Under the pieces are notes generated by a model. The model made no database searches. It saw nothing but the letters and a program-made list of their open reading frames with translations, and was not told the origin of the DNA. Positions 391 to 44,317 of a stretch of DNA of 64,000 bases are shown here, in pieces. Position numbers and translations under genes: made by a program. The DNA is from an uncultured Bacteroidota bacterium. GTDB lineage: Bacteria > Bacteroidota > Bacteroidia > Bacteroidales > P3. The stretch covers positions 10,488 through 74,487 of the forward strand of contig CADCEC010000009.1 in assembly GCA_902800395.1 (NCBI GenBank), read 5' to 3'. Each line of letters begins with the position of its first letter. The stretch's first letter is position 1.

Positions 391-1322
391 AAAAAAGAAC
401 AAAAATCATACTGGCTGTAATAGTAACTATAGTGGCTATAGTTGCTATAATCTCTATCCTTCTCCTCACCGCCAAAACCACGAACGCCGAGCCCCACCGC
501 ATCTTCCTTCCCGAGGGCACCTCCCAGGAAGCCCTCGTCGACACCCTCCATGCACAAGGCATCCTCGAGGAAGGTCTAAACACAAAGATTTTCAACTTTC
601 AATTCTCAATTCTCAATTCCAAAGTGCGTCCGGGGTCTTATATCATCGACCCCCACATGAGCGAGCTCACCCTCGTCCGCCGACTCCGCAACGGCCAGCA
701 GAGTCCCATACGCCTCACCATCGGCAAGTTCCGCACACCGGAGCAGCTCAACAACTATCTCAATGGCAAACTCATGCACAACGACTTCAACATCCCGCTC
801 GACAGTTTCCACCTCATCCGTCCCAACACCTACGAGTTCTACTGGACCATTACCCCCGAACAGTTTATGAAGAAAATGGAGAAAGAGTATGAACGGAAAA
901 AAGTCGATAAAGAAACCATTATATTAGCATCCATCGTCGAGGAGGAGACCAACCACAACCCCGAGAAGCCGCTGATTGCCAGCGTTTACCTCAACCGCTT
1001 GAAGCGCAACATTCCCTTGCAGGCCGATCCCACGGTGAAGTATGCCGTCGGCGACTTCACCCTTCAGCGCATCCTGAACCGTCACCTCGCTGTGGAGTCG
1101 TCCTTCAACACCTATCTCCACACCGGCCTGCCGCCGGCACCCATCTGTCTCCCATCCGACGCTTCTGTCGATGCCGTCCTCAACGCCCCTGAGACAGACT
1201 ATCTGTTCTTCTGTGCCAGCGACCAGATGGACGGCACCCACCGCTTCGCCACCACCCTCGCCGAGCACAACCGCAACGCCGCCGCTTTCCACCGTGCCCT
1301 CAATGCCCGCGGCATCAAATAA
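387..1322 (+). CDS. mltG: Endolytic murein transglycosylase MltG (YceG-like)
   Basis: N-terminal TM anchor MKKRTKIILAVIVTIVAIV. YceG motifs LQADPTVKY, NTYLHTGLPPAPIC and DYLFFCA. I prefer the ATG at 387 over the ATG at 354, which lies inside the upstream gene. Confidence 0.85.
   Translation: MKKRTKIILAVIVTIVAIVAIISILLLTAKTTNAEPHRIFLPEGTSQEALVDTLHAQGILEEGLNTKIFNFQFSILNSKVRPGSYIIDPHMSELTLVRRLRNGQQSPIRLTIGKFRTPEQLNNYLNGKLMHNDFNIPLDSFHLIRPNTYEFYWTITPEQFMKKMEKEYERKKVDKETIILASIVEEETNHNPEKPLIASVYLNRLKRNIPLQADPTVKYAVGDFTLQRILNRHLAVESSFNTYLHTGLPPAPICLPSDASVDAVLNAPETDYLFFCASDQMDGTHRFATTLAEHNRNAAAFHRALNARGIK
594..620. repeat. (AATTCTC)n mini tandem repeat, in frame in mltG (NFQFSILNS)
   Basis: aactttcaattctcaattctcaattcc. 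It is the reverse complement of the repeat at 5081. Confidence 0.8.
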
Positions 1323-1452: not shown

Positions 1453-4056
1453 ATGATAAACAAACGATTCTCACTCGCCATTCTCTTCCTTCTTTGTGGA
1501 AGCATGGCATTCGGCCAGCCTTCATTCGGCCCTAGCGACCCCAGCGACCCAATCGACTGCGGCGAATACCAGTGGCCTCTTGTGCAGTCGCCCTGTCCCG
1601 AGGTGCAGATCAAGCAGAAGCACGACCACACCCCCAAGCCCCAATACCGTCACTACGGCTGGGACACCGTCATCGACTGCAACACCCGTGACGGTATCGT
1701 CCTCTCCTGCACTCCCTACATCCCTGTGCAGTACTTCAATGGCCAATACACCGTCGATGAGATTCCTTACAACCCGCCTGACACCACCTTCTATCTTCAT
1801 TACAACGCGGCCATTGATGCCAATAACCCATACAAAGTAAAAATGCCCATTTCCACCGACGATGACTTTGCTGCATCCTCGACAAACATTCCATATCCAT
1901 TCTATTTCTTTGGTATCCGAAAAAACTATTTCCGTATTGGAGCCAATGGACTGGTCACTTTTACCACCAACTTCGGTTCTGGCACCTCCTGTCCATGGAG
2001 CTATAGCGCCGCTCTTCCTTGGACACCTACCACCACTCAAACTCCTAGCGACGGAGCCACCAGTGCTAATTTCAACCGAATGCATGATGCCATCTATGGT
2101 GTCTATGAGGACACTTATCCCAGCCCCTCCACCCACGGTTCGGCCGGCGACCCGAATTGGGGCATCTACTACGGAGTGCTTGACGAGTATCCTTGCCGAA
2201 AAATCATTTGCTCATGGAATGATGTGCCTCAGTTCAGCTGTACTACCCTACGCTGCACTTACCAAATCGTCTGCTACGAAGGTTCCAACATCATCGAGGT
2301 ACATGTCAAACAGCGTCAAGTTTGTTCCTCCTGGAACGGTGGCCACGGCATCATCGGCATCCAGAATGCCACAGGTTTACCTCAGGTGAATCCCAACGAT
2401 AACAATCCCAACCCTGATTATAACCTCCCCAACGCCAGCGTCATCACTGGTTCTCCCGCTGCTTTCTATCCTGTGGGATACAATACTTTCGAAACCTCTG
2501 TCAACAATGTCGCCTTCCGTTTCACTCCCCAAGGCAACACCTTTATGCGCTCCCAGTGGTACCGTATCTTCGATGACGGACGCGACTCCGTTGTCCTTCA
2601 GGAATACGACCCCATCAACAACCCTACTGCCGTCAACGACACCAACGGCTATGTCATCCCCATGGATCCCGACAACACCTCCTGTCCCACCCTTACCAAA
2701 GCCTACGTCAAGCCTTCCATCCCCTCCAAATATGTCTACTCCCTCCGTTTCAAGAACGCCAACGGCGACTGGTACCGTCTCTACGACACCATCTTCATCG
2801 GTATCGATACCCTCAACAACCTCTCCCTCATCAAGAACGAAACCGAGGGCGACCCGCATGTCTACACCATCTGTCAAGGAAACACTGCCATGATGAGTCT
2901 CCAAATGACCGACATCCAGGACACCCAGTTCGTGGAATGGCACATCTACCGCGAGCGCAACGGCGAGCAAGTGGAGATGGATAATCCCCGCTCTCTGCTT
3001 CGCTTCGGTGCCATGTCCACCATCGACACCATCAAGACACTCCCCATCACCCTCAACACCTCTATGCTGCCCTCTTCCGGCACACGCAACCAGATTGACA
3101 ACATTTATATCCGTTCCATTGTCGAGTTCACCAGCGGATGCCACAACAACGACCTCCTGCTCTTAAGCATCTATCCCAACTTCGACACCACTTTCTATGA
3201 TGGCATCTGTCAAAACGACACCTACACTTGGAACCCCACCGATACCTACGGACACTCCTACACCCATACCTACACCGAGCCTACCGACCCCGCCACCACT
3301 TTTGAGACGCTCACCTCCGTCCCTGGATGCGACAGTACCGTCCGACTCTCACTAGCGGTCTCCGACGTCTCCCACACCATCGACCATATCGAAGACTGCA
3401 AACCCATCGTCTGGCTTAACGGACAGACCTACTCCCAAACCAATACCGCCACCTCCGCCTCCGACACCGTCGTCCTTAAGAACCGCTACCAGTGCGACTC
3501 CGTCGTGCAGCTCGACTTCACCCTCTATCCCCTCACGGCCCAGTTGCGCTCCAACGTCGACCACTTCACCTTCGACAATCTCGACGCCGTGCTCACCGAC
3601 ATCTCCATCAACGGCAACAGCCGTGTGTGGAAACTTCCCGCCATGGCAGACCAAACCACTCCCACCGCATACTACTCCATCCCCGTGGAGATGGACGGCG
3701 CGGAGATTCTCCTCATCGAAAGTAGTGAATACGGCTGCGTCGACACCGCCAGCATCTACATCCCTCTCAACAAAGAGAACTTCTGGATACCCAATATCTT
3801 CACTCCCGACAATCCCAACGGCAACAACCGTTTCGGTTCCATCAGTACCAAGACACTGAACCAGGAGATGCTCATCTACAACCGCCGCGGCGAGCTTGTC
3901 TTCCGCTGCGAAGGTCCCGACTGCACCTGGGACGGTCGCGACCTCAACGGTAAACCCTGTGTCCAGGACGCCTACGTATACATTATCCGCTACGCCAACG
4001 AATTCGAGCCCCATAACACCAAAGTGGCCAAAGGCACCGTAACACTCCTGAGGTAA
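1453..4056 (+). CDS. Large secreted protein with a T9SS type-B (gliding-motility-associated) C-terminal sorting domain
   Basis: Signal peptide MINKRFSLAILFLLCGSMAFGQ. C-terminus IPNIFTPDNPNGNNRF...LIYNRRGELVF...WDGRDLNGKP...YVYIIRY...GTVTLLR. Confidence 0.8.
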   Translation: MINKRFSLAILFLLCGSMAFGQPSFGPSDPSDPIDCGEYQWPLVQSPCPEVQIKQKHDHTPKPQYRHYGWDTVIDCNTRDGIVLSCTPYIPVQYFNGQYTVDEIPYNPPDTTFYLHYNAAIDANNPYKVKMPISTDDDFAASSTNIPYPFYFFGIRKNYFRIGANGLVTFTTNFGSGTSCPWSYSAALPWTPTTTQTPSDGATSANFNRMHDAIYGVYEDTYPSPSTHGSAGDPNWGIYYGVLDEYPCRKIICSWNDVPQFSCTTLRCTYQIVCYEGSNIIEVHVKQRQVCSSWNGGHGIIGIQNATGLPQVNPNDNNPNPDYNLPNASVITGSPAAFYPVGYNTFETSVNNVAFRFTPQGNTFMRSQWYRIFDDGRDSVVLQEYDPINNPTAVNDTNGYVIPMDPDNTSCPTLTKAYVKPSIPSKYVYSLRFKNANGDWYRLYDTIFIGIDTLNNLSLIKNETEGDPHVYTICQGNTAMMSLQMTDIQDTQFVEWHIYRERNGEQVEMDNPRSLLRFGAMSTIDTIKTLPITLNTSMLPSSGTRNQIDNIYIRSIVEFTSGCHNNDLLLLSIYPNFDTTFYDGICQNDTYTWNPTDTYGHSYTHTYTEPTDPATTFETLTSVPGCDSTVRLSLAVSDVSHTIDHIEDCKPIVWLNGQTYSQTNTATSASDTVVLKNRYQCDSVVQLDFTLYPLTAQLRSNVDHFTFDNLDAVLTDISINGNSRVWKLPAMADQTTPTAYYSIPVEMDGAEILLIESSEYGCVDTASIYIPLNKENFWIPNIFTPDNPNGNNRFGSISTKTLNQEMLIYNRRGELVFRCEGPDCTWDGRDLNGKPCVQDAYVYIIRYANEFEPHNTKVAKGTVTLLR

Positions 4057-4082
4057 GAACCAAGAAATAAGAGGTAAGAAGT
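4050..4082. repeat. (TAAGAAC/TAAGAGG)n mini repeat filling the T9SS-gene/asd junction
   Basis: gaggtaagaaccaagaaataagaggtaagaagt. It includes the upstream stop and ends at the asd ATG. Confidence 0.8.
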
Positions 4083-5099
4083 ATGAAGATTGCTGTTGTT
4101 GGAGCCACCGGCCTTGTGGGCCGTGAGATGCTCACCGTGCTCTCTGAGAGAGGATTTGGAAAAGAAGAGATTATTGTCGCCGCCTCGCCGAAATCCATCG
4201 GCAAGAAGATAGACTTTGCCGGACGCCAGCTCTTCGTCGTCTCCGTCGACGACGCCATTGCCGCACGTCCCAACTACGCCATCTTCTCCGCCGGTGCGGC
4301 AGCCTCGCGCCAATATGCGCCACTCTTCGCCGCTGCCGGCACTACCGTCATCGACAACTCCTCGGCCTGGCGCAAAGACCCCACCATCCCTCTAGTGGTA
4401 CCCGAGATTAACATCGACACCGCAACTAACGCATTAACGCAATCAAGCAATAACGCTATCATCATCGCCAACCCCAACTGCAGTACCATCCAGATGGTCC
4501 TCGCCATCTCCGCCCTGCAACGCGAATATGGCATCCGCCGCATCGTCGTCTCCACCTACCAAAGCATCACGGGCACCGGCATCAAAGCTGTCCGCCAACT
4601 CGAGGCTGAAGAGCGAGGAGAGACTCCCGCAGAGATGGCCTACCCCTACCCCATCCACCGCAACCTCTTCCCCCATGGCGGCGACTGGCTCGACAGCGGC
4701 TACACCACCGAGGAGCAGAAGCTCGTCGACGAGACTCGCAAGATTTTCGGCGACCCCACCATCGCTGTCTCTGCCACCGTGGCACGCGTCCCCGTAGTAG
4801 GAGGCCACAGCGAGTCGGTGAATGTGGAGCTGAAAAAGGAATACGACCTCGACGACGTACGCCGCCTCATCGGAAACACCCCCGGTGTAGTGCTCTACGA
4901 CGACCCCTCTAACAACATCTATCCCATGCCCATCACCTCGCATCACCGCGACGAGGTCTTCGTAGGTCGCCTCCGCCGCGACCCCTCTCAGCCCTGCACC
5001 CTCAACCTCTGGGTCGTGGCCGACAACATCCGCAAGGGTGCTGCCACCAACGCCATCCAGATTATGCAAGAACTTATCAAATTGAAAATTGAGAATTGA
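4083..5099 (+). CDS. asd: Aspartate-semialdehyde dehydrogenase
   Basis: MKIAVVGATGLVGREM NAD-binding fold and the active-site region IANPNCSTIQMV. Length is typical, apart from a repeat-derived insert at 4425-4456. Confidence 0.9.
   Translation: MKIAVVGATGLVGREMLTVLSERGFGKEEIIVAASPKSIGKKIDFAGRQLFVVSVDDAIAARPNYAIFSAGAAASRQYAPLFAAAGTTVIDNSSAWRKDPTIPLVVPEINIDTATNALTQSSNNAIIIANPNCSTIQMVLAISALQREYGIRRIVVSTYQSITGTGIKAVRQLEAEERGETPAEMAYPYPIHRNLFPHGGDWLDSGYTTEEQKLVDETRKIFGDPTIAVSATVARVPVVGGHSESVNVELKKEYDLDDVRRLIGNTPGVVLYDDPSNNIYPMPITSHHRDEVFVGRLRRDPSQPCTLNLWVVADNIRKGAATNAIQIMQELIKLKIEN
4425..4456. repeat. (TAACGCAT)-type 8-nt repeat, in frame in asd (TNALTQSSNNA)
   Basis: actaacgc attaacgc aatcaagc aataacgc. 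Confidence 0.8.
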
Positions 5100-7458: not shown

Positions 7459-8003
7459 AAAAGAATATTTTTCTTGCAGTCACTTCTCTTCTGTTCCTGA
7501 CCGCTTGCGCCAACCAAGGACATAATACCGACAACGACGGTACCGTCGAATTTCGCTCACCTAAAGGCGACATCGTGGCCATCCGTACCATCAAAGGTTC
7601 CGACACCACATGGGCTTTCAACAATGCCCTCGGCGAATCCCTCATCCCCGGCACTGACTCCCTCTGGGTCATTGCTGACACCACCAACGGTCAGCCCAAA
7701 GAAGTCATCTTCTTCCACAAAGGGCAACAGACCATGCTCTCATTCTGGGACAACATGGAACGTATGGCAGAAGGCGACCTTGTGGATGGGCTCCGTCACG
7801 GCCGCTGGACGGGCTATGAACGCAATACCGGCAGGAAACAGTCAGAGACCGACTACAGCCTCGGACTGGAAAACGGTTCCTACACCGTCTACAACTACAA
7901 CGGTACTCCACGCATCGTCGGACAGTACGTCGACGGAAAAGAGACTGGCGAATGGTCGTTCTACGACCAGGATGGCAACCTCGCCGGCACCAAACAATAC
8001 TAA
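7455..8003 (+). CDS. Lipoprotein with MORN-variant (YwqK-type) repeats
   Basis: Lipobox FLTAC. Repeats GLRHGRWTGYE, NGSYTVYNYNG and GKETGEWSFYDQDGN. ATGA overlap with uvrC. Confidence 0.7.
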   Translation: MKKNIFLAVTSLLFLTACANQGHNTDNDGTVEFRSPKGDIVAIRTIKGSDTTWAFNNALGESLIPGTDSLWVIADTTNGQPKEVIFFHKGQQTMLSFWDNMERMAEGDLVDGLRHGRWTGYERNTGRKQSETDYSLGLENGSYTVYNYNGTPRIVGQYVDGKETGEWSFYDQDGNLAGTKQY

Positions 8004-8026
8004 CTCATTAACGCATTAACGCATTG
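8001..8026. repeat. (TAACGCAT)n 8-nt repeat between the MORN lipoprotein gene and the CCA enzyme gene
   Basis: taactcat taacgcat taacgcat tg. The first TAA is the upstream stop codon, and the TTG start follows directly. Confidence 0.85.
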
Positions 8027-9526
8027 ATCACCGATCTCTATCCTGAACTCGGCCACATCATCGGCACGGAAGCCGACCGCATGGGTATCGACGCCTATTT
8101 CGTGGGCGGCGTTGTGCGCGACCATTTCCTCCAGCGCCCCTGCACCGATATCGACATCGTCTGCGTAAACAGAGCGGAAAGTGGAAAGTGGCACCCCGAA
8201 GGGGAACTGAACACCATGGAAAAGAAAAACAATGTAGTGAAGAAAGTGGAAAGCGGAGAAGTAAGCATCGGTATCGAACTGGCCCATGCCGCTGCTAAAG
8301 CCCTTGGCGGCAGCAAAGTCTCCGTCTTCAAAAACTTCGGCACCGCCTCCTTCCGTCATAACGACCTCGAGCTCGAATTCGTAGGAGCACGAAAAGAAAG
8401 CTACTCCCACAACTCCCGCAAGCCCATCGTAGAGAACGGCACCCTAGAGGATGACCAGCGGCGACGTGACTTCACCGTCAACGCGCTGGCAGTGTGTCTA
8501 AATGAGGAGCACTTCGGCGAACTCATGGACCCTTTCGGCGGCATCCAGGACCTCAACGCCGGTATCCTTCGCACACCCCTCGACCCCGACATCACCTTCA
8601 GCGACGACCCACTTCGCATGATGCGTGCCATCCGCTTCGCCTCGCAGCTGGGATTCCGCATCGCCGACGACACCTTCGAGGCTATCACCCGCAACGCCAA
8701 ACGTATCGAGATAGTCTCCATGGAACGAATCGCCGTGGAGCTCAACAAAATCATGCTCTCCCCCACTCCTTCCCTCGGCCTCAAACTCATGCAGAAATGT
8801 GGCCTCATGCAGCTTATCCTCCCCGAAATCTCCGCCCTCGCCGGAGTAGAAACCGTTGACGGACGAGGCCACAAAGACATCTTCTATCACACCATGCAAG
8901 TGCTTGACAACGTAGCCGCCTTTAGCGGCAACGTGTGGCTCCGTTGGGCCGCCCTACTGCACGATGTCGGCAAGCCTGGCGTGAAGCGCTACGACCCCAA
9001 GCAGGGCTGGACATTCCATGGCCACGAGGCCCGCGGTGCCCACATGGTGAAGCGTATCTTCAAGCGCCTGCGCCTGCCGTTGGGCGAAGAGATGCGCTAC
9101 GTCGAGAAACTCGTCATGCTCCACATGCGCCCCATCATCCTCGCCGAGGATGTCGTCACCGACAGCGCCGTGCGCCGCCTCCTCTTCGAGGCTGGCGACG
9201 ACATCGACGACCTCATGCTACTCTGCAACGCCGACATCACCACCCGCAACGAAGAGAAGCAGCGTCGCCATCGCGCCAACTTCGAGTTGGTGAAGCGCAA
9301 ACTCGTCGAACTCGAAGAGCGCGACCGCATCCGCAACTTCCAGCCTCCCGTCTCAGGACAGGACATCATGGACACTTTCGGCATCGGCCCTTGCCGCGAA
9401 ATAGGCACCATCAAGGACGCCATCAAGGACGCCATCCTCGATGGCCAAATCCCCAACGACCGTGCCGCTGCCTGGCAAATGATGCTCGACATCGCCGCCA
9501 CACTAGGTCTAAAAACCAAAGAATGA
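8024..9526 (+). CDS. CCA tRNA nucleotidyltransferase / poly(A) polymerase family protein with HD domain
   Basis: YFVGGVVRD...DIDIV nucleotidyltransferase head, RRDFTVNALA, and HD region LLHDVGKP. The only plausible start is TTG at 8024, because a TAA lies at 8009 in the same frame. Confidence 0.85.
   Translation: MITDLYPELGHIIGTEADRMGIDAYFVGGVVRDHFLQRPCTDIDIVCVNRAESGKWHPEGELNTMEKKNNVVKKVESGEVSIGIELAHAAAKALGGSKVSVFKNFGTASFRHNDLELEFVGARKESYSHNSRKPIVENGTLEDDQRRRDFTVNALAVCLNEEHFGELMDPFGGIQDLNAGILRTPLDPDITFSDDPLRMMRAIRFASQLGFRIADDTFEAITRNAKRIEIVSMERIAVELNKIMLSPTPSLGLKLMQKCGLMQLILPEISALAGVETVDGRGHKDIFYHTMQVLDNVAAFSGNVWLRWAALLHDVGKPGVKRYDPKQGWTFHGHEARGAHMVKRIFKRLRLPLGEEMRYVEKLVMLHMRPIILAEDVVTDSAVRRLLFEAGDDIDDLMLLCNADITTRNEEKQRRHRANFELVKRKLVELEERDRIRNFQPPVSGQDIMDTFGIGPCREIGTIKDAIKDAILDGQIPNDRAAAWQMMLDIAATLGLKTKE
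8174..8262 (+). repeat. Composite insert in the CCA enzyme gene, bounded by two (GGAAAGT)n copies
   Basis: gcggaaagtggaaagtgg (8174-8191) and gtgaagaaagtggaaagcggagaagt (8237-8262) flank 45 nt that contain a ccccgaagggg hairpin. Confidence 0.7.
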
Positions 9527-12287: not shown

Positions 12288-13552
12288 TGTTTATTCTTCA
12301 GCACCAAGTCGAACTGGTCCCAGAATTCGGGGAAGGATTTGTCGACCACCTCGGGATTCTCGATGACAATGTCGGGATAACGGAGCTTAAGGGGCGCAAA
12401 AGCCATCGCGATACGATGGTCGTTGTAGGTCTGAACGGGTTCCATGGGACGGAGGTCGGAAGGGATGATGACCATCTCCTCGTCCGTACAGTTGACTTTG
12501 CATCCCATGCGACGGAGTTCGGTGGAGATAGCCTGCATGCGGTCACTCTCCTTGAGGGCTATATTGCTGACTCCCTTGAGGGTAGCTTTGACCTTGGCCG
12601 CTGCGGCGGCCACCGCGAAGGTGGGCACAAGGTCGGGGCAGTCGATACAGTTGAACTGTATGCTTCTGGGGCAGTCGCCACCGCCTTGGAGGGTGATGGA
12701 GCGTCCGGTGGAACGATAGGGAGAACGCACCTCGGTGGAGGTGACACCGAGGAGGCGGAAGAAAGTGTCGGTGGCGCTGTCGCCCTGGCAGGAGTCGAGT
12801 TGCAGACCCAGGAGGCGGATGCGGAGGTCGGGGCGCAGAAGGGCCATGGTGTAAAAATAGGAAGCCGACGACCAGTCGCGCTCAATGGCCACAGCCGCGG
12901 ACTTGGGCCTGGAAGTCATGTGCTGCACATAGTAGGTGCGTCCGTTGGAGGAACGTCGCACCTCGATGCCAGCCTGACGGAGAATCTCGCAGGTCATCTC
13001 GATATAGGGGCGCGACGTGGGACGCTGTGTCATGGTGAGTGAGATGCCATCAGGCATGCGGGGAGCTATGAGCAGCAACGAGCTGACAAACTGACTGCTG
13101 AGGAGCGGGTCGACAGAGACGGTGCGGCGTGTGGGTACACCTCCTTGTATCTGAACAGGGAGGAAGCCCTCTTTTTCAGTGCAATCCACTCGCAGGCCCA
13201 TCTGGCGGAGTGCCTCAATGAGCGGAGCCATAGGACGCTGGCAGAGACGGTCGTCGCCAGTGAGGATATGATAGCCGGGAGTGATGGCCAACAACGGCAT
13301 AAGGAAGCGGGCTACGGAACCGGCGTTATTGCAGTAGTAAACATGGGAAGAACTGTCACTTTCTATCTGCGTAAGCAAACGGCGGAGCAGTCGGGTGTCG
13401 CCGGAGGTGGAGGGTTTGGTGATGCGGAAGCCTCCTCCACGGGAGTGATTGTCGGACTGTCCCATTCCATGCAGGAGATGGTTAATCATCAGCCATCGAT
13501 TGCTCATGCTTTTGGAGGCGGGCAGGGAGATACGTATGTCGTTAGTCTTCAT
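12284..13552 (-). CDS. aroA: 3-phosphoshikimate 1-carboxyvinyltransferase (EPSP synthase)
   Basis: LPASKSMSNRWL motif, DHRIAMAFA, and typical length from the ATG at 13552. The longer track ORF start at 13681 lies inside the upstream gene. Confidence 0.85.
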   Translation of the reverse strand: MKTNDIRISLPASKSMSNRWLMINHLLHGMGQSDNHSRGGGFRITKPSTSGDTRLLRRLLTQIESDSSSHVYYCNNAGSVARFLMPLLAITPGYHILTGDDRLCQRPMAPLIEALRQMGLRVDCTEKEGFLPVQIQGGVPTRRTVSVDPLLSSQFVSSLLLIAPRMPDGISLTMTQRPTSRPYIEMTCEILRQAGIEVRRSSNGRTYYVQHMTSRPKSAAVAIERDWSSASYFYTMALLRPDLRIRLLGLQLDSCQGDSATDTFFRLLGVTSTEVRSPYRSTGRSITLQGGGDCPRSIQFNCIDCPDLVPTFAVAAAAAKVKATLKGVSNIALKESDRMQAISTELRRMGCKVNCTDEEMVIIPSDLRPMEPVQTYNDHRIAMAFAPLKLRYPDIVIENPEVVDKSFPEFWDQFDLVLKNKQ

Positions 13553-14756
13553 TGATATTATATTCCTTGAGTTTGCGATAGAGAGTGCGCTCGGAGATGT
13601 GGAGGTCGGCAGCAGCCTGCTTGCGGTTGCCCTGATTGTGCTCGAGGGCGCGGATAATGGCGCGACGCTCTCGGTCCTCAAGTCTCAGGGACTCCTCTTC
13701 GATAATTTCGGGGGTCATGAACTCCTCATCGTTTTGAGCGGATAGTGGGTAGTGGGTAGTAGGTAGTGGATAGTTTGAGTTATTGTTGGCGTTGTTGGTT
13801 GTGAGCTGTGAGACCATATGGCGGAGTTCGTTGATTTCGCCACGCATCTCGTTAATCATCTGTCCCATGGAGAGGGCTTTGAGGAGCAACTCTCGGTCGG
13901 TAATCTGGCTTGCGGCCACCGGAGCAGGACTCTCGGGAACAAGAGCGGGCATGCGCTCGGCAGGGATGTAGGCCAGATAGTTCTGCAGGATGTCGGGAGT
14001 GATGCTGCGGGCGGTCTCGACGACGGCAATCTGCTCGGTGATATTCTTGAGTTCGCGCACGTTTCCATACCAGGGATAATTCATCAGCATGGTACGGGCA
14101 TCCTCGGTGAGGACGATGGGCGGCATGTGGTATTTCTCGGCCACATCGGAGGAGAACTTGCGGAACAGCAGCGGGATGTCCTCCTTGCGCTCACGCAGAG
14201 GTGGGATATAGATGGAGAGTTGGTTGAGACGGTAGTAGAGGTCTTCGCGGAAGCGTCCTTCACGCACGGCTCGGACGATATCTACATTGGTAGCGGCGAC
14301 GACACGCACGTCTATCTTCTGCGGCGTGGAGGAGCCTACAGGAATTATCTCGCCGTTCTCGAGGACGCGTAGGAGCTTGACCTGCATAGCAAGAGGCAAC
14401 TCGCCAATCTCGTCGAGGAAGATGGTGCCGCCATCGGCCTCCTCAAAGTAGCCCTTGCGGGAGCGGTCGGCACCGGTGAAGGCACCCTTGACGTGACCGA
14501 AGAGCTCACTCTCGATGGTGCCCTCGGGGATGGCACCACAGTTAACGGAGATAAGGCCACGACCCTGTCGGACATGCTTGCGAGTGCTGTTCTCATGGAT
14601 GATGCGTGAGAAGACGTCCTTGCCCACGCCGCTCTCGCCGGTGATGAGGATGGAGAGGTCGGTGGGTGCCACCTGGATGGCCTTGTTGAGAGCCATGAGG
14701 AGTTTGGGATCGTTGCCGATGATGTCGTATCGTTGTTTGAGGGTTTGGATGTCCAT
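13542..14756 (-). CDS. Sigma-54-dependent transcriptional activator (AAA+ and Fis-type HTH, no receiver domain)
   Basis: Walker A GESGVGKD, GAFTGA loop, ESELFGH, and a C-terminal HTH (NQGNRKQAAADLHISERTLYRKL). Confidence 0.85.
   Translation of the reverse strand: MDIQTLKQRYDIIGNDPKLLMALNKAIQVAPTDLSILITGESGVGKDVFSRIIHENSTRKHVRQGRGLISVNCGAIPEGTIESELFGHVKGAFTGADRSRKGYFEEADGGTIFLDEIGELPLAMQVKLLRVLENGEIIPVGSSTPQKIDVRVVAATNVDIVRAVREGRFREDLYYRLNQLSIYIPPLRERKEDIPLLFRKFSSDVAEKYHMPPIVLTEDARTMLMNYPWYGNVRELKNITEQIAVVETARSITPDILQNYLAYIPAERMPALVPESPAPVAASQITDRELLLKALSMGQMINEMRGEINELRHMVSQLTTNNANNNSNYPLPTTHYPLSAQNDEEFMTPEIIEEESLRLEDRERRAIIRALEHNQGNRKQAAADLHISERTLYRKLKEYNINED
13740..13774. repeat. (GTGGGTA/GTAGGTA)n heptamer repeat, in frame in the sigma-54 activator linker (NYPLPTTHYPLS)
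   Basis: ggatagtgggtagtgggtagtaggtagtggatagt. TAG recurs every 7 nt on the plus strand, and the sense strand is stop-free. Confidence 0.8.
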
Positions 14757-14762
14757 TTTTTT

Positions 14763-16760
14763 CTAATTGATTACTCGGTGAAGGGCCAAGCCGATTTGGC
14801 GACGGAGGTCGACAAGGTGTTTCTTTTCGGCGAGGAGTTGGTCGATATCCTCGTTACTCTTGACCTCGCGGAAGCGACGGGCGTTGTCGGCGATGCGGTT
14901 GTCGACACATTTCATCTTGAAGGTCAGAAGGGTTTCAGTGAGGTCCTCCTGCAGATGGTCCTCGAGAGAGGGAACGAAGACCTGCTTCTGGCGCCAGGTG
15001 TCGCTGATGCGGTAGGTGTCGAGCATCAGGGAGATGGCGAAAGAGCGAAGGGCGTCGTCATCGTCGGTGATAAAACGTGAGGCATCGGGCTCTTCGCCAC
15101 GGGCGAGGGTGTCGCAATAGTAAAGATAGATACGCTGACATAGAGGATCGGAGAAAGAGAGGTCGTCGGCCTGGAGGTCGTTGACGACCAGTTCGGCAAG
15201 GGAGTAGGCGGCAAGTTGAGAGCCACCGTCGTCGGAAGGAACCTGAAGTTCGATGGAATTATGACCGTAATTGAGGAGGAGTTGGATGAGGTGGCGCTCG
15301 GAAGGGTCGATTGGAAGGTCGGAGGTCGGAGGTCGGAGGTCAGAGGTCGGAGTACTCTGAGTATTCGGAGTGCTCTGAGTACTCTGATCATTCTGATTAC
15401 TCTGATTATTCTGAGAGATTTGATTCAGGCGGTTCTGGTTGATGGCCTTGGAGAGTTCCGAGGCGAGGGCCTCTTCGGAAACGTCGAGGAGGTGGGCACA
15501 CTGGGCGATGTACTCTGTGCGTTCGATGAGGTCGGGCACCAGGGCGATGGTTGCCACGGTGTCCTTGACGAGCTCAGCCTTGCGGATGGGGTCGTTCTTG
15601 ACACCGTCGAGAAGCACACGGGTCTTGAAGATAAGGAAGTTGTCCTCATGGGTAGCGAGATACTCCTGCAGGGCTGTGGAGCCGTATTTCTGAGCGTAAC
15701 TGTCGGGGTCCTCGCCGTCGGGGAAGAGGACACAGCGGACGTGCATTCCCTCGGCAAAAAGGAGGTTGACGGCACGGAGAGCCGCCTTGATGCCGGCGGA
15801 GTCGCCGTCGTAAAGAACGGTGACGTTAGGGGTATAGCGCTTGATAAGGCGTATCTGTTCGGTAGTGAGGGAAGTGCCACAGGAGGCCACTGTGTTCTCC
15901 ACGCCCGACTGGTGCATGGAGATGACATCGACGTTGCCTTCGACGAGGTAGCACTTGTCGGCCTTGGAGATGGCGGAACGCGCCTGGAAGAGGCCGTAGA
16001 GGATGCGCGACTTGTTGTAGATATCAGAGTCGGGGGAGTTGACATATTTGGCAGCCTGCTTCTCGGAACTGAGGACACGGCCGGAGAAGCCGAGGACACG
16101 GCCCGAGATGCTATAGATAGGGAACATCACACGTCCACGGAAGCGGTCGTAGGCTCGTTTCTTATCTCCTGTCTCCTTGTCTCCTGACTCCTTGAAAATA
16201 GTCAGGCCTGTTTTTTCGAGGACGATGTCGCTGTAGCCGTTCTTTCGGGCGTGGTCGGTGAAGTTGGTCCACTCGTCGAGGCAGTAGCCGAGGCCGAAGC
16301 GCTTGATTATCTCATCGCTGAGGCCGCGGCCATGGAAATAGCTGAGGCCCACGGCACGCCCCATCTCATCGTTGTAGAGGAGGTCGGCGAAATACTGCTG
16401 GGCGAATTCGGAGAGGTGGAAGAGGGCATCGCGCTCGTTCTGTCGTTCTTTCTGTTCCTCGGTCTGTTCCTCCTCCTGGATCTCGATATTGTATTTCCGT
16501 GCCAGCCAGCGGAGGGCTTCGGGATAGGTGAAGTGTTCGTGTTTCTTAAGGAAGGAGACCACGTCGCCAGCCTCGCCGCAGCCGAAGCATTTGAAGATGC
16601 CTTTGGAGGGGGAGACATAGAAGGAGGGCGTCTTCTCGTTGTGGAAGGGGCAACAGCCTATGTGGTTGGCTCCGCGCTTCTTGAGCGAAACAAAGTCACC
16701 TATCACCTCCTCGATGCGGGCGGCGTCCATGATCCGTTGTATGGTCTCTTGGTCTATCAT
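14763..16760 (-). CDS. dnaG: DNA primase
   Basis: Zinc ribbon CCPFHNEKTPSF...CFGCG and TOPRIM region YLVEGNVDVISM...LYDGDSAG. I prefer the ATG at 16760 because the track start at 16775 overlaps the -7 promoter box. Confidence 0.9.
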   Translation of the reverse strand: MIDQETIQRIMDAARIEEVIGDFVSLKKRGANHIGCCPFHNEKTPSFYVSPSKGIFKCFGCGEAGDVVSFLKKHEHFTYPEALRWLARKYNIEIQEEEQTEEQKERQNERDALFHLSEFAQQYFADLLYNDEMGRAVGLSYFHGRGLSDEIIKRFGLGYCLDEWTNFTDHARKNGYSDIVLEKTGLTIFKESGDKETGDKKRAYDRFRGRVMFPIYSISGRVLGFSGRVLSSEKQAAKYVNSPDSDIYNKSRILYGLFQARSAISKADKCYLVEGNVDVISMHQSGVENTVASCGTSLTTEQIRLIKRYTPNVTVLYDGDSAGIKAALRAVNLLFAEGMHVRCVLFPDGEDPDSYAQKYGSTALQEYLATHEDNFLIFKTRVLLDGVKNDPIRKAELVKDTVATIALVPDLIERTEYIAQCAHLLDVSEEALASELSKAINQNRLNQISQNNQSNQNDQSTQSTPNTQSTPTSDLRPPTSDLPIDPSERHLIQLLLNYGHNSIELQVPSDDGGSQLAAYSLAELVVNDLQADDLSFSDPLCQRIYLYYCDTLARGEEPDASRFITDDDDALRSFAISLMLDTYRISDTWRQKQVFVPSLEDHLQEDLTETLLTFKMKCVDNRIADNARRFREVKSNEDIDQLLAEKKHLVDLRRQIGLALHRVIN
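15313..15430. repeat. (GGAGGTC)5 followed by about eight 9-nt (ACTCTGAGT/ATTCTGATT) units, in frame in the dnaG linker
   Basis: ggaaggtcggaggtcggaggtcggaggtcagaggtcgg, then agtactctgagtattcggagtgctctgagtactctgatcattctgattactctgattattctgagagatttgattcagg. Confidence 0.85.
16163..16193. repeat. (TCTCCTG)n-like repeat, in frame in dnaG (SGDKETGDKK)
   Basis: tatctcctgtctccttgtctcctgactcctt. Confidence 0.6.
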
Positions 16761-21363: not shown

Positions 21364-21975
21364 TTATTTATTGAGGACTGACTGCAGATTGGTGTAAGCT
21401 TTGTTGACACTGCGGAGGAAGGCTCGCGAAGTAATGGTTGAGCCGGTGATGGCGTCGACATCACCACCGTCTTTCTTGACGGTGAGGGGTCTGGCATGCT
21501 CGACAGAGACGATGTCGCCCTTGCCGCCTTTCACGAACCAATCGCCAGCCTTGGCGCCGAGACCCGGGGTCTCGTTGCTCTCGAGAATGCTGTAGCCATA
21601 GACGTTGCCGTCCTTGTCGAAGCCGACCATCACCTTGAGCGGACCACCAAAGCCATTGGGGTCGGAAGTCTCAACCGCCGCTCCGGCGTATTCGCCATCG
21701 GCAGTATAGGCTATATGACACACAACACTTTCACCGTTGACATCCACGGCAGTGTCTTTCAACGTTTCATATTTGATGGATTCCGTCACCTGCCCGTTCT
21801 CATCGACCTGCTGTAGCACATCGGCGATAGCTTTCTTCACCTTGTTTTCCTTGGCAACCTGGATGGGCTCCTCGGTGACGGCATTCATCAGCGCCAGGGC
21901 CGCGGCAGCCACCAGGGCAATCGCCGTCAGCGAGAGGAGCATATTGACTAATGTAGATTGAGCTTTCTTTGCCAT
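21364..21975 (-). CDS. rnfG: Rnf complex subunit G (FMN-binding)
   Basis: N-terminal TM helix, ETPGLG, and the FMN attachment motif AITGSTITSRAF. Confidence 0.85.
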   Translation of the reverse strand: MAKKAQSTLVNMLLSLTAIALVAAAALALMNAVTEEPIQVAKENKVKKAIADVLQQVDENGQVTESIKYETLKDTAVDVNGESVVCHIAYTADGEYAGAAVETSDPNGFGGPLKVMVGFDKDGNVYGYSILESNETPGLGAKAGDWFVKGGKGDIVSVEHARPLTVKKDGGDVDAITGSTITSRAFLRSVNKAYTNLQSVLNK

Positions 21976-21978
21976 AAT

Positions 21979-22016
21979 GTTGATACGTTTATACGTTGAT
22001 ATGTTAATAAGTTAAC
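21979..22016. repeat. ATACGTTGAT-type repeat filling the rnfD/rnfG spacer
   Basis: gttgatacgtttatacgttgatatgttaataagttaac. Confidence 0.65.
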
Positions 22017-26395: not shown

Positions 26396-26845
26396 ATGAA
26401 GACACTTCGTGCTGCAATATTTTTAATTTTTAATTTTTCATTCTTTATAGCCCCTGTTTTCTCTCAAGGCAGCCGTTTCTCCGTTACCGGCGACGTGGCT
26501 GTCAACGCCATGGTGGAGCGACATGTGGAATTCAACAACAGGGTAAAGACCATCCCGGGATTCCGCGTACAGATAGCCTCTTTCTCGGGAGCCAACTCGA
26601 AGAACAGCGCTTTCAGCCTGCGCGACCGCTTCGTCATCGACTACCCTGCCGTACAGGCATATATCGTCTTCGATGAGCCCAACTTCAAGGTAAAAGTCGG
26701 TGACTTCCGCACCCGCCTCGAGGCTTATGCTTTCCTACAGCAAATCAAAGAGGTATACAAAGGCTACATCATCAAAGACAATATCAATCCCGAACCGCCC
26801 ACAGTCGAGGACTACGCTCCGGACGATTTAGAAGAGGAATTCTAG
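26396..26845 (+). CDS. SPOR domain-containing protein
   Basis: Signal/anchor sequence, then GFRVQIASFSG...FKVKVGDFRTRLEAYAF, which is typical of SPOR. Confidence 0.7.
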   Translation: MKTLRAAIFLIFNFSFFIAPVFSQGSRFSVTGDVAVNAMVERHVEFNNRVKTIPGFRVQIASFSGANSKNSAFSLRDRFVIDYPAVQAYIVFDEPNFKVKVGDFRTRLEAYAFLQQIKEVYKGYIIKDNINPEPPTVEDYAPDDLEEEF

Positions 26846-27933
26846 ACAAACAAAGCTGCGGCCATGCCGTCGGCATGAAGTAAACCCTCGGGGGTAGGAA
26901 CAAAACAGTTGTCTTTCAAGACAATCCAGTCCAAATCAACATAAGGTTGCATCCCACAATGCAGCCTTTCTTTATACTTTTTAGGCACCTGTGCAAGTGC
27001 CAGGCCACGGGTGGTACGGAGGGCTGTCATTAGAAGTTCGTTGTAAGCATCGGCCTCAGTGAGGATCTCCTGCTCGAAGGTGCCGTCGGGCTTGTTCCAA
27101 CGTCGCTTTTCGACATGGGCGACCGAAGTGGAGCCACCGTCGAAGAGAGAAAAGCTGTGTGCACCAGGACCCAGGCCGAGGTAGGGGGTGCGGTCCCAGT
27201 AGCGACTATTGTGCTTCGACTCAAAGCCGGGACGGGCGTAGTTGCTGACCTCGTACTGTCGGAATCCGGCCTTCAGAAGTTGTTGACGCAGAGCATGGTA
27301 TTGTTGTATCACTTCCTCCTCGTCAGGCAGCACTACCCTACCCTGCTCCACCTGTACGGCCAGTGCGGTGCCAGGTTCCACGGTGAGGGCATAGGCGGAG
27401 ACATGGGAAACCAATTGAAAATTGAAAGCTGAAAATTGAAAAGTTTCTGGCAGACCATAGATAAAGTCGACGCTGAGATTGCTAAATCCTAAAGCATGAG
27501 CATTCTCCACAGCAGCAAGGGCCTGGTTTGCGGTATGGCGGCGACCGATGAGGCGAAGCATCGCGTCGTCAAGACTCTGGATGCCGATACTCAGACGGTC
27601 TACAAAACCCAAGTCACTGAGTCCCTGCAGGTAACCAACAGTCAAGTCTTCAGGATTTGCTTCGAGGGTCACCTCTTCGACCTGCGAGAGGTCGAAGCAC
27701 TCATGCAACGCCTTGACAATGCGCTCCAGCTCGCCAAGAGGCAGAATCGACGGGGTACCACCTCCGAAGTAGATAGTGCGAATAGGATGATTTTGCTCGT
27801 GACAACGCAGACGAATCTCCTCGATAAGGGCGTCGACGTAGCTTTCCACTTTCCACTTTCCACTTTCCACCTTGGAAAAGAAAGCACAGTAGGTACACTT
27901 GCGATGACAGAAAGGAACGTGAATGTAGATCAC
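26842..27933 (-). CDS. hemW: Radical SAM heme chaperone HemW (HemN-like)
   Basis: IYIHVPFCHRKCTYCAF radical SAM motif, FGGGTPS, and a HemN C-terminal domain. GTG start. Contains two repeat-derived inserts. Confidence 0.85.
   Translation of the reverse strand: MIYIHVPFCHRKCTYCAFFSKVESGKWKVESYVDALIEEIRLRCHEQNHPIRTIYFGGGTPSILPLGELERIVKALHECFDLSQVEEVTLEANPEDLTVGYLQGLSDLGFVDRLSIGIQSLDDAMLRLIGRRHTANQALAAVENAHALGFSNLSVDFIYGLPETFQFSAFNFQLVSHVSAYALTVEPGTALAVQVEQGRVVLPDEEEVIQQYHALRQQLLKAGFRQYEVSNYARPGFESKHNSRYWDRTPYLGLGPGAHSFSLFDGGSTSVAHVEKRRWNKPDGTFEQEILTEADAYNELLMTALRTTRGLALAQVPKKYKERLHCGMQPYVDLDWIVLKDNCFVPTPEGLLHADGMAAALFV
27411..27442. repeat. (ATTGAAA)n heptamer repeat, in frame in hemW (FQFSAFNFQL)
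   Basis: caattgaaaattgaaagctgaaaattgaaaag. Confidence 0.8.
27842..27871 (-). repeat. (GGAAAGT)4 repeat, in frame in hemW (VESGKWKVES)
   Basis: The plus strand reads ctttccactttccactttccactttccacc. Confidence 0.9.
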
Positions 27934-27972
27934 CTCTTAGCTCTTAGTTCTTAGTTCTTAGTTCTCTAAGAG
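27934..27972. repeat. (CTTAGTT)n, the reverse complement of (TAAGAAC)n, from the hemW start to the meaB C-terminus
   Basis: ctcttagctcttagttcttagttcttagttctctaagag. Confidence 0.85.
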
Positions 27973-36983: not shown

Positions 36984-38090
36984 ATGAACATACGAAAATC
37001 CACTCCTGACGACATCCACCTCATCCTGAACATGTACGACCACTCGCGTAGCGTAATGCGGGCCGACGGCAACATGACCCAGTGGGTGGGTTACCCTCTG
37101 CGCGAGGACGTGGAAGAGGATATTAAGAGAGGGGTATCATATATAGTGGAAAGTGGAAAGTGGAAAGTGGAAAGTACAGGTACCTTCGCTTTAGTGCCTG
37201 GAGAGGAACCCACCTACAACTATATCGACCATGGGCGCTGGATTGACGAGCAGACCCCCTACTCTACCCTGCACCGCATGGCGGCTCTATCCGGCACCCA
37301 CGGCATCGCCGACATCGCCTTCCGCTATGTCAAAGAGCAAGCCTCCCACCTGCGTGTAGACACCCACCATGACAACCGTCCCATGCGTCATATCCTCGAG
37401 AAGGAAGGCTTCGTCTACTGCGGCATCATCTACATGCCCGACGGTGCCCCGCGCGACGCCTATGAGTGGTGGCGCTACGACTGCGTGCCCGCCGACCTCA
37501 AGGAATATGTGGAGACCGTCATCCTCCCACAGCACGAGCACTACGATGCCGCCCACCGACCCGACCATATCCGTCGCGTGATTGCCCGAAGCATGATGCT
37601 TCAGCCGTCGGCTGTCACCTATATTGCCGCCGCCATGCATGATATTGGCATCTGCGAAGGACGTGAAGTGCACCACCTGGCCTCGGGCCGCATCATCCGC
37701 GCCGACCAACACCTGCGCCGTTGGTTCAACGAAGAGGAAATAGAACTTATCGCCCAGGCCGCTGAAGACCATCGCGCTTCCGCCACCACCAAGCCGCGCT
37801 CCCTACTGGGATGCATCCTCTCCGAGGCCGACCGCGACATCGAGCCCGAAACCATCGTGCGCCGCACCGTGGAGTACGGCTTCAGCCACTACCCCACTCT
37901 CGACCGCGAAGGACATTGGCAGCGCACCCTCGAACACCTACATGAGAAATACGCCGAAGGCGGCTACCTGAAGCTCTGGATGGACGACAGCCCCAATGCC
38001 GCCCCACTGGCCGACCTCCGCGAACTCATTCACAACGAGAGACGCCTGCGTTCCCTCTTCGACAACCTCTTCGACACAATAAGTCATTAA
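36984..38090 (+). CDS. Fusion protein with an N-terminal GNAT acetyltransferase and a C-terminal HD-domain phosphohydrolase
   Basis: GNAT half (HRMAALSGTHGIA...DNRPMRHILEKEGF). HD half (AAMHDIGI, AEDHRAS, SEADRD). Carries one (GGAAAGT)n insert. Confidence 0.7.
   Translation: MNIRKSTPDDIHLILNMYDHSRSVMRADGNMTQWVGYPLREDVEEDIKRGVSYIVESGKWKVESTGTFALVPGEEPTYNYIDHGRWIDEQTPYSTLHRMAALSGTHGIADIAFRYVKEQASHLRVDTHHDNRPMRHILEKEGFVYCGIIYMPDGAPRDAYEWWRYDCVPADLKEYVETVILPQHEHYDAAHRPDHIRRVIARSMMLQPSAVTYIAAAMHDIGICEGREVHHLASGRIIRADQHLRRWFNEEEIELIAQAAEDHRASATTKPRSLLGCILSEADRDIEPETIVRRTVEYGFSHYPTLDREGHWQRTLEHLHEKYAEGGYLKLWMDDSPNAAPLADLRELIHNERRLRSLFDNLFDTISH
37146..37175 (+). repeat. (GGAAAGT)4 repeat, in frame in the GNAT-HD gene (VESGKWKVES)
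   Basis: gtggaaagtggaaagtggaaagtggaaagt. Confidence 0.9.
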
Positions 38091-39860: not shown

Positions 39861-40421
39861 CTATTCCACCCCTTCAAGGCTCATCAACGAGTGAACGGGG
39901 GCGATGTCCTCGAGAATCTTGCGTCCGCCCAAGACTGGCAGTTCCACCAGGAAGATAAACTCTTTAATGCGTATCCTCTTGCCGTCGATAACCTGCTGCT
40001 GCAATGAATCGACGATACCCTTCACCGTGCCACCCGTGGCCAGCAAGTCGTCGAAAAGGGTAATGTCGATATATTCACTGCTGCAGCACGCCGCGAAATC
40101 ACTACGCCTATAGAACAACTCGTCACTGCCATACTCTTTCATGATTTCCACCTTTACCAGGTCTCCCTCGGCATGCGGCAGTTTACCCTTCTTACGGAAA
40201 GGAACGATGTTCTTCACGTGGTCGCTCACCGATAGTAACGGTGCGGCGAAGAGGAAACCTCGGGCCTCGACGGTGGCCACATTGGGAGCCGTCGTCAGTC
40301 GGTCGATTTCCCTGACTGCCTGTTGGAAAGCCTCCTTATCCTGCAAGAAAGGCAGCACATCAATGAAATCGATTCCCGGTTTTGGGAAGCCCAAATAGTG
40401 TTTAATGACGTTTTCGAACAT
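39861..40421 (-). CDS. apt: Adenine phosphoribosyltransferase-like
   Basis: FPKPGIDFIDVLPFL, EARGFLFAAPL, and the PRPP motif LFDDLLATGGT. Confidence 0.8.
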   Translation of the reverse strand: MFENVIKHYLGFPKPGIDFIDVLPFLQDKEAFQQAVREIDRLTTAPNVATVEARGFLFAAPLLSVSDHVKNIVPFRKKGKLPHAEGDLVKVEIMKEYGSDELFYRRSDFAACCSSEYIDITLFDDLLATGGTVKGIVDSLQQQVIDGKRIRIKEFIFLVELPVLGGRKILEDIAPVHSLMSLEGVE

Positions 40422-44313: not shown

Positions 44314-44317
44314 ACAA

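Follow-up and report, generated by a model that had tools for sequence, protein, structure and literature searches.

In this study, we focus on short tandem arrays of 7-nt units in a 64,000-nt stretch of contig CADCEC010000009.1 (the window) from an uncultured Bacteroidota bacterium (assembly GCA_902800395.1), starting from an array at positions 13740-13774 that lies within the gene of a sigma-54-dependent activator. Within genes, such arrays are mostly oriented so that the sense strand is free of stop triplets, and this strand rule very probably represents a real reading-frame veto on in-gene heptamer arrays, while their location is not wholly explained by the veto. The features at this locus are as follows.

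13740-13774, sense on the minus strand: heptamer array whose plus strand reads GGATAGTGGGTAGTGGGTAGTAGGTAGTGGATAGT; (TAGTGGG)4.6 in Tandem Repeats Finder (TRF), with TAG in each unit
13542-14756, minus strand: sigma-54-dependent activator of 404 aa, host of the array

The sense unit, CCCACTA, contains a stop triplet in no phase, and both the sequence and a check of the open reading frame (ORF) agree with the sequence-only reading, which had placed the array in the minus-strand activator with a stop-free sense strand. The host protein contains the Pfam domains Sigma54_activat (residues 12-182), AAA_lid_14 (188-264), and HTH_8 (359-399), and the array encodes NYPLPTTHYPLS at approximately residues 328-339, in the interdomain linker between the end of the lid at residue 264 and the start of the HTH domain at residue 359. 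Orthologues of the activator in the same genus, at about 80% protein identity, have a linker of similar length that is unalignable and lacks the CCCACTA array; in one of them, from the congener G004, an 8-mer array occupies the site.

Genome and census of arrays

The assembly holding the window (labelled G000) comprises 2.4 Mb in 21 contigs and was compared with the congener genomes G002, G004, G012, G015, and G018; its nearest named relatives are uncultured Bacteroidales metagenome-assembled genomes from sheep colon and other gut samples. The genome contains 738 period-7 arrays, belonging to about 140 unit families and with a mode of 4-5 copies. Their abundance greatly exceeds chance: with a minimum length of 24 nt, 614 were counted in the real sequence vs 2 after block shuffling. 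Gene calls were made with our own hexamer model, which gave 2008 genes and 90.4% coding sequence (CDS); 42% of the heptamer arrays lie inside genes, and 506 of the 2008 genes, a quarter, contain at least one short-period array. Statistics on location and orientation are based on the 638 heptamer arrays with at least three copies (271 in CDS and 367 outside), each assigned to a class according to whether its cyclic unit sequence contains a stop triplet on 0, 1, or 2 strands.

In the genome-wide TRF table, unit length varies from 7 to 16 nt while array length stays at approximately 25-33 nt, which suggests that block length rather than copy number is constrained. An AroE-like gene of 253 aa (G000 C7:29368-30129) carries three different in-frame arrays in one small enzyme, encoding QQSNNQAIKQS (an 8-mer array), QLLTINSKLLTIN (AACTCTT), and LSTFHFPLSTF (GGAAAGT antisense), and shows that ordinary enzymes can be heavily loaded with arrays. 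The occurrence of arrays in the essential genes dnaG, asd, panC, aroB, and aroE argues against on/off switching of the phase-variable type.

Stop content, orientation, and reading frame

Stop content differs sharply between arrays inside genes and those elsewhere, as shown by the following counts.

Arrays in CDS: stop on 0, 1, and 2 strands in 153, 99, and 19 arrays
Arrays at gene edges: stop on 0, 1, and 2 strands in 7, 45, and 121 arrays
Intergenic arrays: stop on 0, 1, and 2 strands in 4, 73, and 117 arrays

Units without a stop on either strand account for 153 of the 271 CDS arrays vs 11 of the 367 outside (Fisher's test, odds ratio 42, p = 2e-57), whereas units with stops on both strands are depleted in CDS (19/271 vs 238/367; Fisher's test, p = 5e-55). 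Stop-bearing units are therefore depleted in CDS when location and orientation are compared, as the sequence-only reading had anticipated. Among arrays whose unit has a stop on one strand only, the stop strand is the sense strand in just 11 of 99 CDS cases, the sense strand being stop-free in the other 88. Fully intergenic arrays of this class between co-directional genes are unoriented, with the stop strand as sense in 26 of 53. At gene edges the relation is inverted (34/40), as expected from the fact that an ORF is terminated by any stop-bearing array beginning within it; of the 199 edge overlaps, 156 involve gene 3′ ends. The in-gene rule holds on both GC-skew strands (25/30 and 63/69), a check for which alone local GC skew was used, since it is a poor proxy of replication strand here (43% of genes on the G-rich strand). 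The earlier claim that in-gene copies are always stop-free on the sense strand describes 241 of the 271 in-gene arrays; the remaining 30 (11%) have a stop-bearing sense unit, and the word "always" has to be dropped.

A second comparison is provided by unit length. The numbers of in-gene arrays whose unit carries a stop are as follows.

Period 7: sense 28, antisense 98, of 252 arrays
Period 8: sense 17, antisense 64, of 84 arrays
Period 10: sense 5, antisense 17, of 24 arrays
Period 9: sense 53, antisense 63, of 124 arrays, without asymmetry

The strand asymmetry is thus seen only at periods coprime to 3, while a 9-nt unit is read in a single phase. Since period-9 arrays show no asymmetry, the constraint acts on the reading frame and not on stop triplets or on the strand as such, and a restriction by reading frame in turn implies that the arrays are translated. 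Base composition was considered as a confounder and rejected, as families of equal GC content behave in opposite ways (AACCGTT, 0 arrays in CDS, vs AAAGTGG, 117).

The rule recurs in G004, where copies of TGAAAGG in long coding ORFs show either the sense unit CCTTTCA or TTA/TCA in the unit that would otherwise be in frame. In G004, the region of synteny with the window covers 74.6 kb, and its in-gene arrays of period 7, 8, 10, or 11 comprise 13 in the permissive orientation, two accommodated arrays (stop-bearing unit on the sense strand), and one that is stop-free on both strands.

Accommodated arrays

The 30 in-gene heptamer arrays of G000 with a stop-bearing sense consensus provide a third comparison: the stop is intact at 0 of 35 in-frame positions and at 79 of 95 out-of-frame positions. 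In the typical case, (AACTCTT)n is read as TLNS[Q/K]LLTLNS, with TAA changed to CAA or AAA. The host genes are real, since arrays are bridged by Pfam matches to TPP_enzyme_C, Pantoate_ligase, and DHQS_C, and one array is followed by a SPASM domain. Accommodated arrays in the window are listed below.

26419-26447, plus strand: (ATTTTTA)n, a unit with a sense-strand TAA that is replaced by TCA where it would be in frame; the array encodes IFLIFNFSFFI in the signal peptide of a SPOR protein
4421-4461, plus strand: 8-mer array in asd, CAACTAAC GCATTAAC GCAATCAA GCAATAAC, with TAA changed to TCA in the in-frame unit only
63391-63415, minus strand: degenerate stretch of the (GTTCTTA) type within a signal peptide; TAC in frame where TAG would be

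At the asd site, G004 has a stop-free variant array and G012 has none. For the copy at 63391, the sequence-only reading had correctly recognized the TAC variant (in frame ...TCT TAC CTC...) but had taken it for the single coding exception, and the arrays at 26419-26447 and 4421-4461 are further exceptions within the window. Accommodated arrays may have arisen by rescue after insertion, from pre-existing variant units, or from homogenisation blocked by selection at the in-frame unit. These exceptions are subject to the same stop veto as the other in-gene arrays.

Other in-gene arrays of the window

The remaining in-gene arrays of the window discussed here have a stop on the antisense strand or on neither strand, where stop content was recorded.

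588-619, plus strand: (ATTCTCA/TTTTCAA)n in a YceG/MltG gene (387-1322); TGA on the antisense strand
27413-27442, minus strand: (TTCAATT)n in a radical-SAM HemW-like gene (26842-27933); TGA on the antisense strand
57631-57658, minus strand: (TTTTTCA)4 in the signal-peptide region of a DUF5686 gene (55099-57738); TGA on the antisense strand
15316-15352, minus strand: (GACCTCC)n in the DnaG interdomain linker; stop on neither strand; the family's sole array in the genome
16161-16194, minus strand: GGAGACA-type array within the DnaG catalytic region
27842-27870, minus strand: (GTGGAAA)4.1 of the GGAAAGT family in the HemW-like gene; stop on neither strand
37145-37175, plus strand: (AGTGGAA)4.4 of the GGAAAGT family in gene 36984-38090
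54230-54260, plus strand: (AAAGTGG)4.4 in a GAF-domain gene

These arrays bear out what had been read from the sequence about the mltG and hemW copies, whose sense strands are stop-free (ATTCTCA at 588-619 and TTCAATT at 27413-27442), and about the copy in the DUF5686 gene, which is indeed read as TTTTTCA. GGAAAGT and GGAGGTC are stop-free on both strands and TTAAGAA and TAAGAAC stop-bearing on both, as had been stated. The proposal that the two stop-free families are the commonest in genes holds for GGAAAGT (117 of its 123 arrays in genes) and fails for GGAGGTC, which has one array genome-wide.

Occupancy of these sites varies among congeners. G004 has the array at 588 at the matching site and G012 lacks it, and the array at 27413 in hemW is common to the orthologous sites of G004, G002, G018, and G015 (five species with G000). 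At the site aligned with 57631, G004 has (TTTTCAA)n. The array at 27842 fills a stretch that in relatives has the same length but no repeats, and G012 lacks 30 nt at the array at 37145.

Site re-use across species

Among the in-gene window arrays that could be mapped in G004, 15 of 23 have an array at the orthologous site vs 3.7% for random CDS sites; in G012, 5 of 19 orthologous sites are occupied vs 2-3% expected. In the reverse direction, approximately 11 of 18 G004 TGAAAGG sites are occupied in G000. The units themselves are not conserved to the same extent. The dominant family is species-specific, with 147 hits of the GGAAAGT pattern in G000 (77 forward and 70 reverse), 31 in G015, and 0-6 in the other genomes; G004 has instead TGAAAGG, with 46 hits and TGA on one strand. 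Unit or period differs between species at 54230 (AAAGTGG vs an 8-mer CAATCAAG array in G004, with none in G012), at 13740 (CCCACTA vs an 8-mer), at 15316, and at 59174-59202 (TACTCAGAA vs GACCTTAAG). Further differences in unit or period among congeners were observed at 15316-15415, 21974-22015, and 40421-40449, and at loci L124 and L128-L134. At locus L098, GGAAAGT is on the sense strand in G000, and G004's TGA-bearing family is inverted at the orthologous site.

The age of the arrays also bears on their origin. The compared species are about 25% apart in DNA, yet arrays are near-perfect, and at locus L135 the array shared by G015 and G000 is 31/32 identical amid flanks that are 67-76% identical. 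Compared with five relatives, the dnaG array at 16161 adds a clean 21 nt, and its flanks show microhomology to the family of the array, a 15-16-nt family also found at another G000 locus (L106 alignment). Either the arrays would be far younger than the species split, with the same sites hit again, or they would be kept homogeneous, and neither corresponds to random insertion.

The strongest alternative to random arrival followed by a frame filter is that a limited set of sites exists at which arrays are inherited or re-written, through homing, template switching, or concerted evolution, with species-specific units and with the stop rule acting as a veto at each turnover. We give this explanation about an even chance. 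The occupancy in G004 and G012, the reciprocal occupancy of the TGAAAGG sites, the exchange of units and periods at single sites, the species-specific dominant families, the L135 array, and the dnaG insert with its microhomology flanks all speak in its favour. However, strong limits of structural tolerance, if arrays arise at a very high rate, could produce common sites as well, junction arrays are not significantly co-located (4/11 vs 21%), and the comparison covers about 75 kb of synteny in two or three species. Nor was any machinery found, the two Y1-transposase genes of the genome being flanked by other palindromes and not by heptamers.

Candidate mobilising enzymes

REP/REPIN populations mobilised by RAYT transposases form genome-specific families of short repeats that occupy similar positions in related genomes. 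Two single-copy Y1_Tnp (RAYT-like) genes are present in G000 (C3:158579-159115 and C12:13176-13616), and both are flanked by their own REP/REPIN sequences, which are GC-rich palindromes and not heptamer arrays. No link between these REPs and the heptamer arrays was found, and assignment of the arrays to a REP/REPIN-RAYT system was rejected, as heptamers flank neither Y1 transposase gene. The C12 REP hairpin (CACCCC-loop-GGGG) resembles the core of the composite element described below. In addition, one ORF of about 900-1000 aa with a reverse-transcriptase domain was observed at C1:140700-143384.

Composite element and encoded peptides

A composite element of about 85 nt has the form (GGAAAGT)n-GGCACCCCGAAGGGGAACTGAACACC...AGTGAAGAA-(AGTGGAA)n, with a CCCC-GAA-GGGG hairpin and a conserved core. 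Its copies are as follows.

8176-8270 of the window, plus strand: in-frame copy within the head domain encoded by a CCA-adding/PolyA-polymerase gene
Other copies in G000: C1:8339, C1:149996, C1:170210, C4:85652, C5:52103, C5:118561, and C11:45801

The element is in frame in eight different genes, and all eight CDS copies are in the sense orientation, although the antisense strand is open in three frames and the sense strand in two. It is read in two phases, giving HPEGELNTMEKKNNVVKK or APRRGTEHLGKEK (APRRGTEH...) peptides. Solo arrays of the genome are about 30 nt long and non-palindromic. For GGAAAGT arrays in genes, the sense orientation is in mild excess (72 sense vs 45 antisense, p = 0.016). 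Sense copies encode ESGKWKVES-like peptides with a mean hydropathy of -1.3, antisense copies FPLSTFHF-like peptides with +0.5, and the share located no more than 90 nt from a gene start is 16% for antisense vs 7% for sense copies.

These features suggest that in-gene orientation could be set mainly by the encoded peptide, hydrophilic and flexible in loops and linkers and hydrophobic in signal peptides, with stops as only one component. The uniform sense orientation of the composite despite an open antisense strand and the sense excess, hydropathy difference, and start-proximal antisense copies of GGAAAGT are consistent with this explanation, which we nevertheless consider unlikely as the main cause: it leaves unexplained both the limitation of strand asymmetry to periods coprime to 3 and the precise alteration of in-frame stop positions, and GGAAAGT is common in genes in both orientations.

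Inverted pairs of heptamer arrays from several families were also observed around a 20-25-nt spacer with GCTGACGC, at 44316-44400 in the window and at G000 C11:57157-57240, C1:284624-284725, C10:112996-113090, and C4:364318-364410. On the opposite strand, GCTGACGC reads ATGCGTCAGCATCG-CTTTCC... and corresponds to gene starts of the type MRQHRFPLSTFHF. A search of array flanks revealed no general target motif and no target-site duplication, the only recurrent feature being GCTGACGC within 30 nt of 22 of the 638 arrays. An Rfam scan gave no match on the arrays or the composite, its sole hit in the window being a tRNA.

Arrays at gene junctions

In the window, all junction arrays lie at gene junctions conserved in relatives. 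They include the following.

27935-27965, minus strand: (GAACTAA)n; stops on both strands; provides the stop codon of the upstream gene
53855-53892, plus strand: (GAACTAA)5.4; stops on both strands; gene junction kept in relatives
63475-63509, minus strand: (GAACTAA/GAAGTAA)n; stops on both strands; junction
4053-4088, plus strand: (GTAAGAA)n; junction between a conserved upstream gene and asd
40421-40449, minus strand: (AAGAGTT/AAGAATT)n; junction; same family in G012, CCTAGGAAA x8 in G004

At the junction at 4053, G012 has (GGTTTAA)n and G004 has no array. At the junctions of 27935-27965 and 8001-8025, relatives have overlapping ATGA stop/start codons, and in G000 the array pushes the genes apart. 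The array yields a new stop at both junctions, and the one at 8001 seems also to create a new context for the start. Genome-wide, the median gap between the upstream stop and the beginning of an array is 2 nt, and that between the end of an array and the downstream start is 22 nt (interquartile range 3-80). Several junction families whose units carry stops on both strands have a strong orientation with respect to transcription (AACTAAG 15:0, AACTATT 5:23, AACTCTT 1:11, and AACCGTT 1:11), and since their stops are on both strands, stops cannot account for this orientation. Furthermore, only 3% of non-CDS arrays are stop-free on both strands vs 45% of random intergenic heptamers.

Stop-rich junction arrays could be viewed as selected for a function, for example termination in all frames on both strands or the provision of A-rich unstructured leaders for Shine-Dalgarno-poor initiation, so that more than exclusion from genes would account for their location. 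The scarcity of stop-free units relative to intergenic composition, the close spacing to stop and start codons, the oriented families, and the similar placement reported for TAACTGA (PMC4679880) and GGGAATC (PMC4692102) repeats would fit such a role. We consider it improbable, however, as relatives have no array, or one of unrelated units, at these junctions, and counts based on families represent non-independent events.

Genes split or truncated by an array were sought at the junctions. Genes flanking arrays are not shorter than others (311 vs 289 aa on average). Twenty tight junction arrays with a short neighbour were listed, and ten upstream and downstream pairs were scanned with Pfam. Seven of the ten pairs represent two different domains, each matched over nearly the full profile: S6/S18, SufE/FeS_assembly_P, ATP-synt_DE_N/Amidohydro_1, DUF2975/HTH_26, NUDIX/TSCPD, MGMT-type DNA_binding_1/TfoX_N, and 23S_rRNA_IVP/Gate. 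An eighth pair also has different domains (a partial Zn_ribbon_DnaG match and DUF4248), and the remaining two were uninformative.

Comparison with known repeat systems

The closest parallel is offered by the TAACTGA heptamers that, in MacGregor 2015 (PMC4679880), are described as direct repeats in marine Beggiatoaceae, some Cyanobacteria, and five Bacteroidetes, arranged in tandem in 2-6 copies mainly at gene junctions near start and stop codons. According to the same paper, forward TAACTGA gives stops in all frames, so that overlap is possible only at ORF ends, in-ORF copies are in the stop-free reverse orientation, and a forward insertion into coding sequence would, in the author's view, terminate the gene and be deleterious. 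The G000 arrays are likewise heptamer direct repeats with tandem 7-nt units in few copies and many sets per genome, and they share both the junction placement and the arrangement of stop-bearing orientations at ORF ends and between genes with stop-free orientations inside ORFs. The unit itself is not shared, as no TAACTGA array and no TAACTGATAACTGA was found on either strand of the genome. G000 differs further in having about 140 unit families instead of one, a larger in-gene share (42% of arrays vs about 14%), and a dominant family that, unlike TAACTGA, is stop-free on both strands; in-frame point-variant copies and cross-species site re-use are G000 features not described in PMC4679880.

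A heptamer excess among prokaryotic long simple sequence repeats (LSSR) was reported by Mrazek et al. 2007, as summarised in PMC4679880 and PMC4692102. The GGGAATC and GGGGA(C/T)T repeats of Xanthomonas and Nostoc (PMC4692102) strongly prefer about four units and lie between co-directional ORFs, less than 50 bp from stop or start codons. These repeats resemble the G000 arrays in the 7-nt unit, the number of about four units, and placement. The GGGAATC-type repeats are G-rich and quadruplex-forming, unlike the G000 arrays, and the presence of a short-period array in 506/2008 G000 genes is a further difference.

In Cyanobacteria, the short tandemly repeated repetitive (STRR) sequences of Calothrix and Anabaena, which are also cited in PMC4692102, comprise several tandem heptamer families dispersed in one genome, mainly in intergenic regions. 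G000 likewise contains several dispersed tandem heptamer families in a different phylum; however, the STRR1-3 units of heterocystous cyanobacteria (CCCCAGT, TTGGTCA, and CAACAGT) form no arrays in the genome, and the G000 arrays do not belong to the STRR families.

For insertion into coding sequence, the nearest precedent is the Rickettsia palindromic elements (RPEs), which lie in frame within unrelated housekeeping genes and add a peptide while the protein remains intact (Ogata et al. 2000, as reviewed in PMC10969869). The ~85-nt composite resembles an intragenic miniature inverted-repeat transposable element of the RPE type in being in frame in eight different genes. RPEs are palindromic elements of about 150 bp with a conserved ORF, whereas the solo arrays of G000 are non-palindromic, ~30-nt blocks that occur in any of three phases; of the expected form, a palindromic in-frame element of 100-150 bp, the composite has the hairpin at its length of ~85 nt, and the solo arrays have neither.

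Interpretation

We observed directly that the pattern exists, that it is limited to periods coprime to 3 and independent of transcription, and that point variants alter the in-frame stops. That purifying selection has removed forbidden copies, and what generates the arrays, we infer. In the mechanism that we propose, the genome is filled with ~30-nt arrays of 7-nt units, with about 4-5 units each and recurrent families. Since 7 cannot be divided by 3, translation through at least three units takes the unit in all three phases, and any stop on the sense strand closes the gene. A needed gene would accordingly tolerate two kinds of array, those with a stop-free sense strand and those with a point variant in the one or two units that would otherwise place a stop in frame. 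An array bringing an in-frame stop would either end the ORF, being then seen as a junction array with the stop codon, or be lost by purifying selection. Orientation beyond the veto would most likely be governed by the encoded peptide in genes and by leader or 3′-end requirements at junctions.

Several considerations weigh against this reading or limit what can be drawn from it. Since 7 is coprime to 3, any open frame across three units must lack stops, and the rule is therefore largely arithmetic; its logic is already published (PMC4679880), and by itself it adds little. Within CDS it is moreover circular, genes being defined as open frames, and the gene calls behind it come from a home-made hexamer model and not from a curated annotation. 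Only three comparisons are informative, namely those made with intergenic arrays, period-9 arrays, and out-of-frame positions. Quantitatively, a filter acting on stops alone fits poorly: arrays without a stop on either strand are 93% in CDS, as if insertions of ten residues were cost-free, arrays with a stop on one strand are 46% in CDS vs the ~82% that such a filter predicts, and the 3% stop-free share of non-CDS arrays misfits the 45% expected. One-strand-stop families are about eight times rarer in genes than this filter predicts from stop-free families, and 95% of GGAAAGT arrays are in genes though the unit is stop-free. No split or truncated gene was found among the ten Pfam-scanned pairs or at the window junctions; this absence neither supports nor refutes the filter, as forbidden copies in needed genes are not expected in a consensus assembly.

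The sequence-only reading had proposed that blocks arise or insert at random and that only copies leaving the frame open survive. The frame filter is supported, on the evidence of stop class, orientation, period, the G004 replicate, and altered in-frame stops. Random origin is not supported, in view of the scarcity of stop-free families between genes, the re-use of 15 of 23 sites, the eight of eight sense copies of the composite, and the oriented junction families. A strand bias arising from a mechanistic preference tied to transcription or replication direction alone, against which the same reading had itself cautioned, might draw on the oriented junction families and the mild sense excess of GGAAAGT, but is very improbable given the unoriented intergenic one-strand-stop arrays, the in-gene arrays that track the gene strand on both GC-skew strands, the lack of asymmetry at period 9, and the nearly equal forward and reverse GGAAAGT hits on the contigs.

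Significance

The reading-frame veto shows that arrays are translated in about a quarter of the organism's proteins, essential enzymes included; were the arrays removed or bypassed at the RNA level, the stop rule would not hold. The clean internal control given by arrays of 7, 8, and 10 nt vs those of 9 nt, and by in-frame vs out-of-frame units, distinguishes frame selection from biases of mutation or transcription. What is most interesting, and what the rule does not explain, is that the arrays of congeners lie at the same gene positions with different, species-specific units. One rather speculative possibility is that these are genus-wide, actively turning-over repeat blocks of ~30 nt, written or homing into a limited number of genic and junction sites, with species-specific units that are overwritten in either orientation. 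If true, this would represent a new element or templated-repair process that colonises coding sequence, of which the stop veto would be the visible selective boundary. The origin of bacterial heptamer repeats has been a standing question since the STRR and LSSR were described, and the re-use of sites across species makes it testable by comparative genomics within one gut genus.

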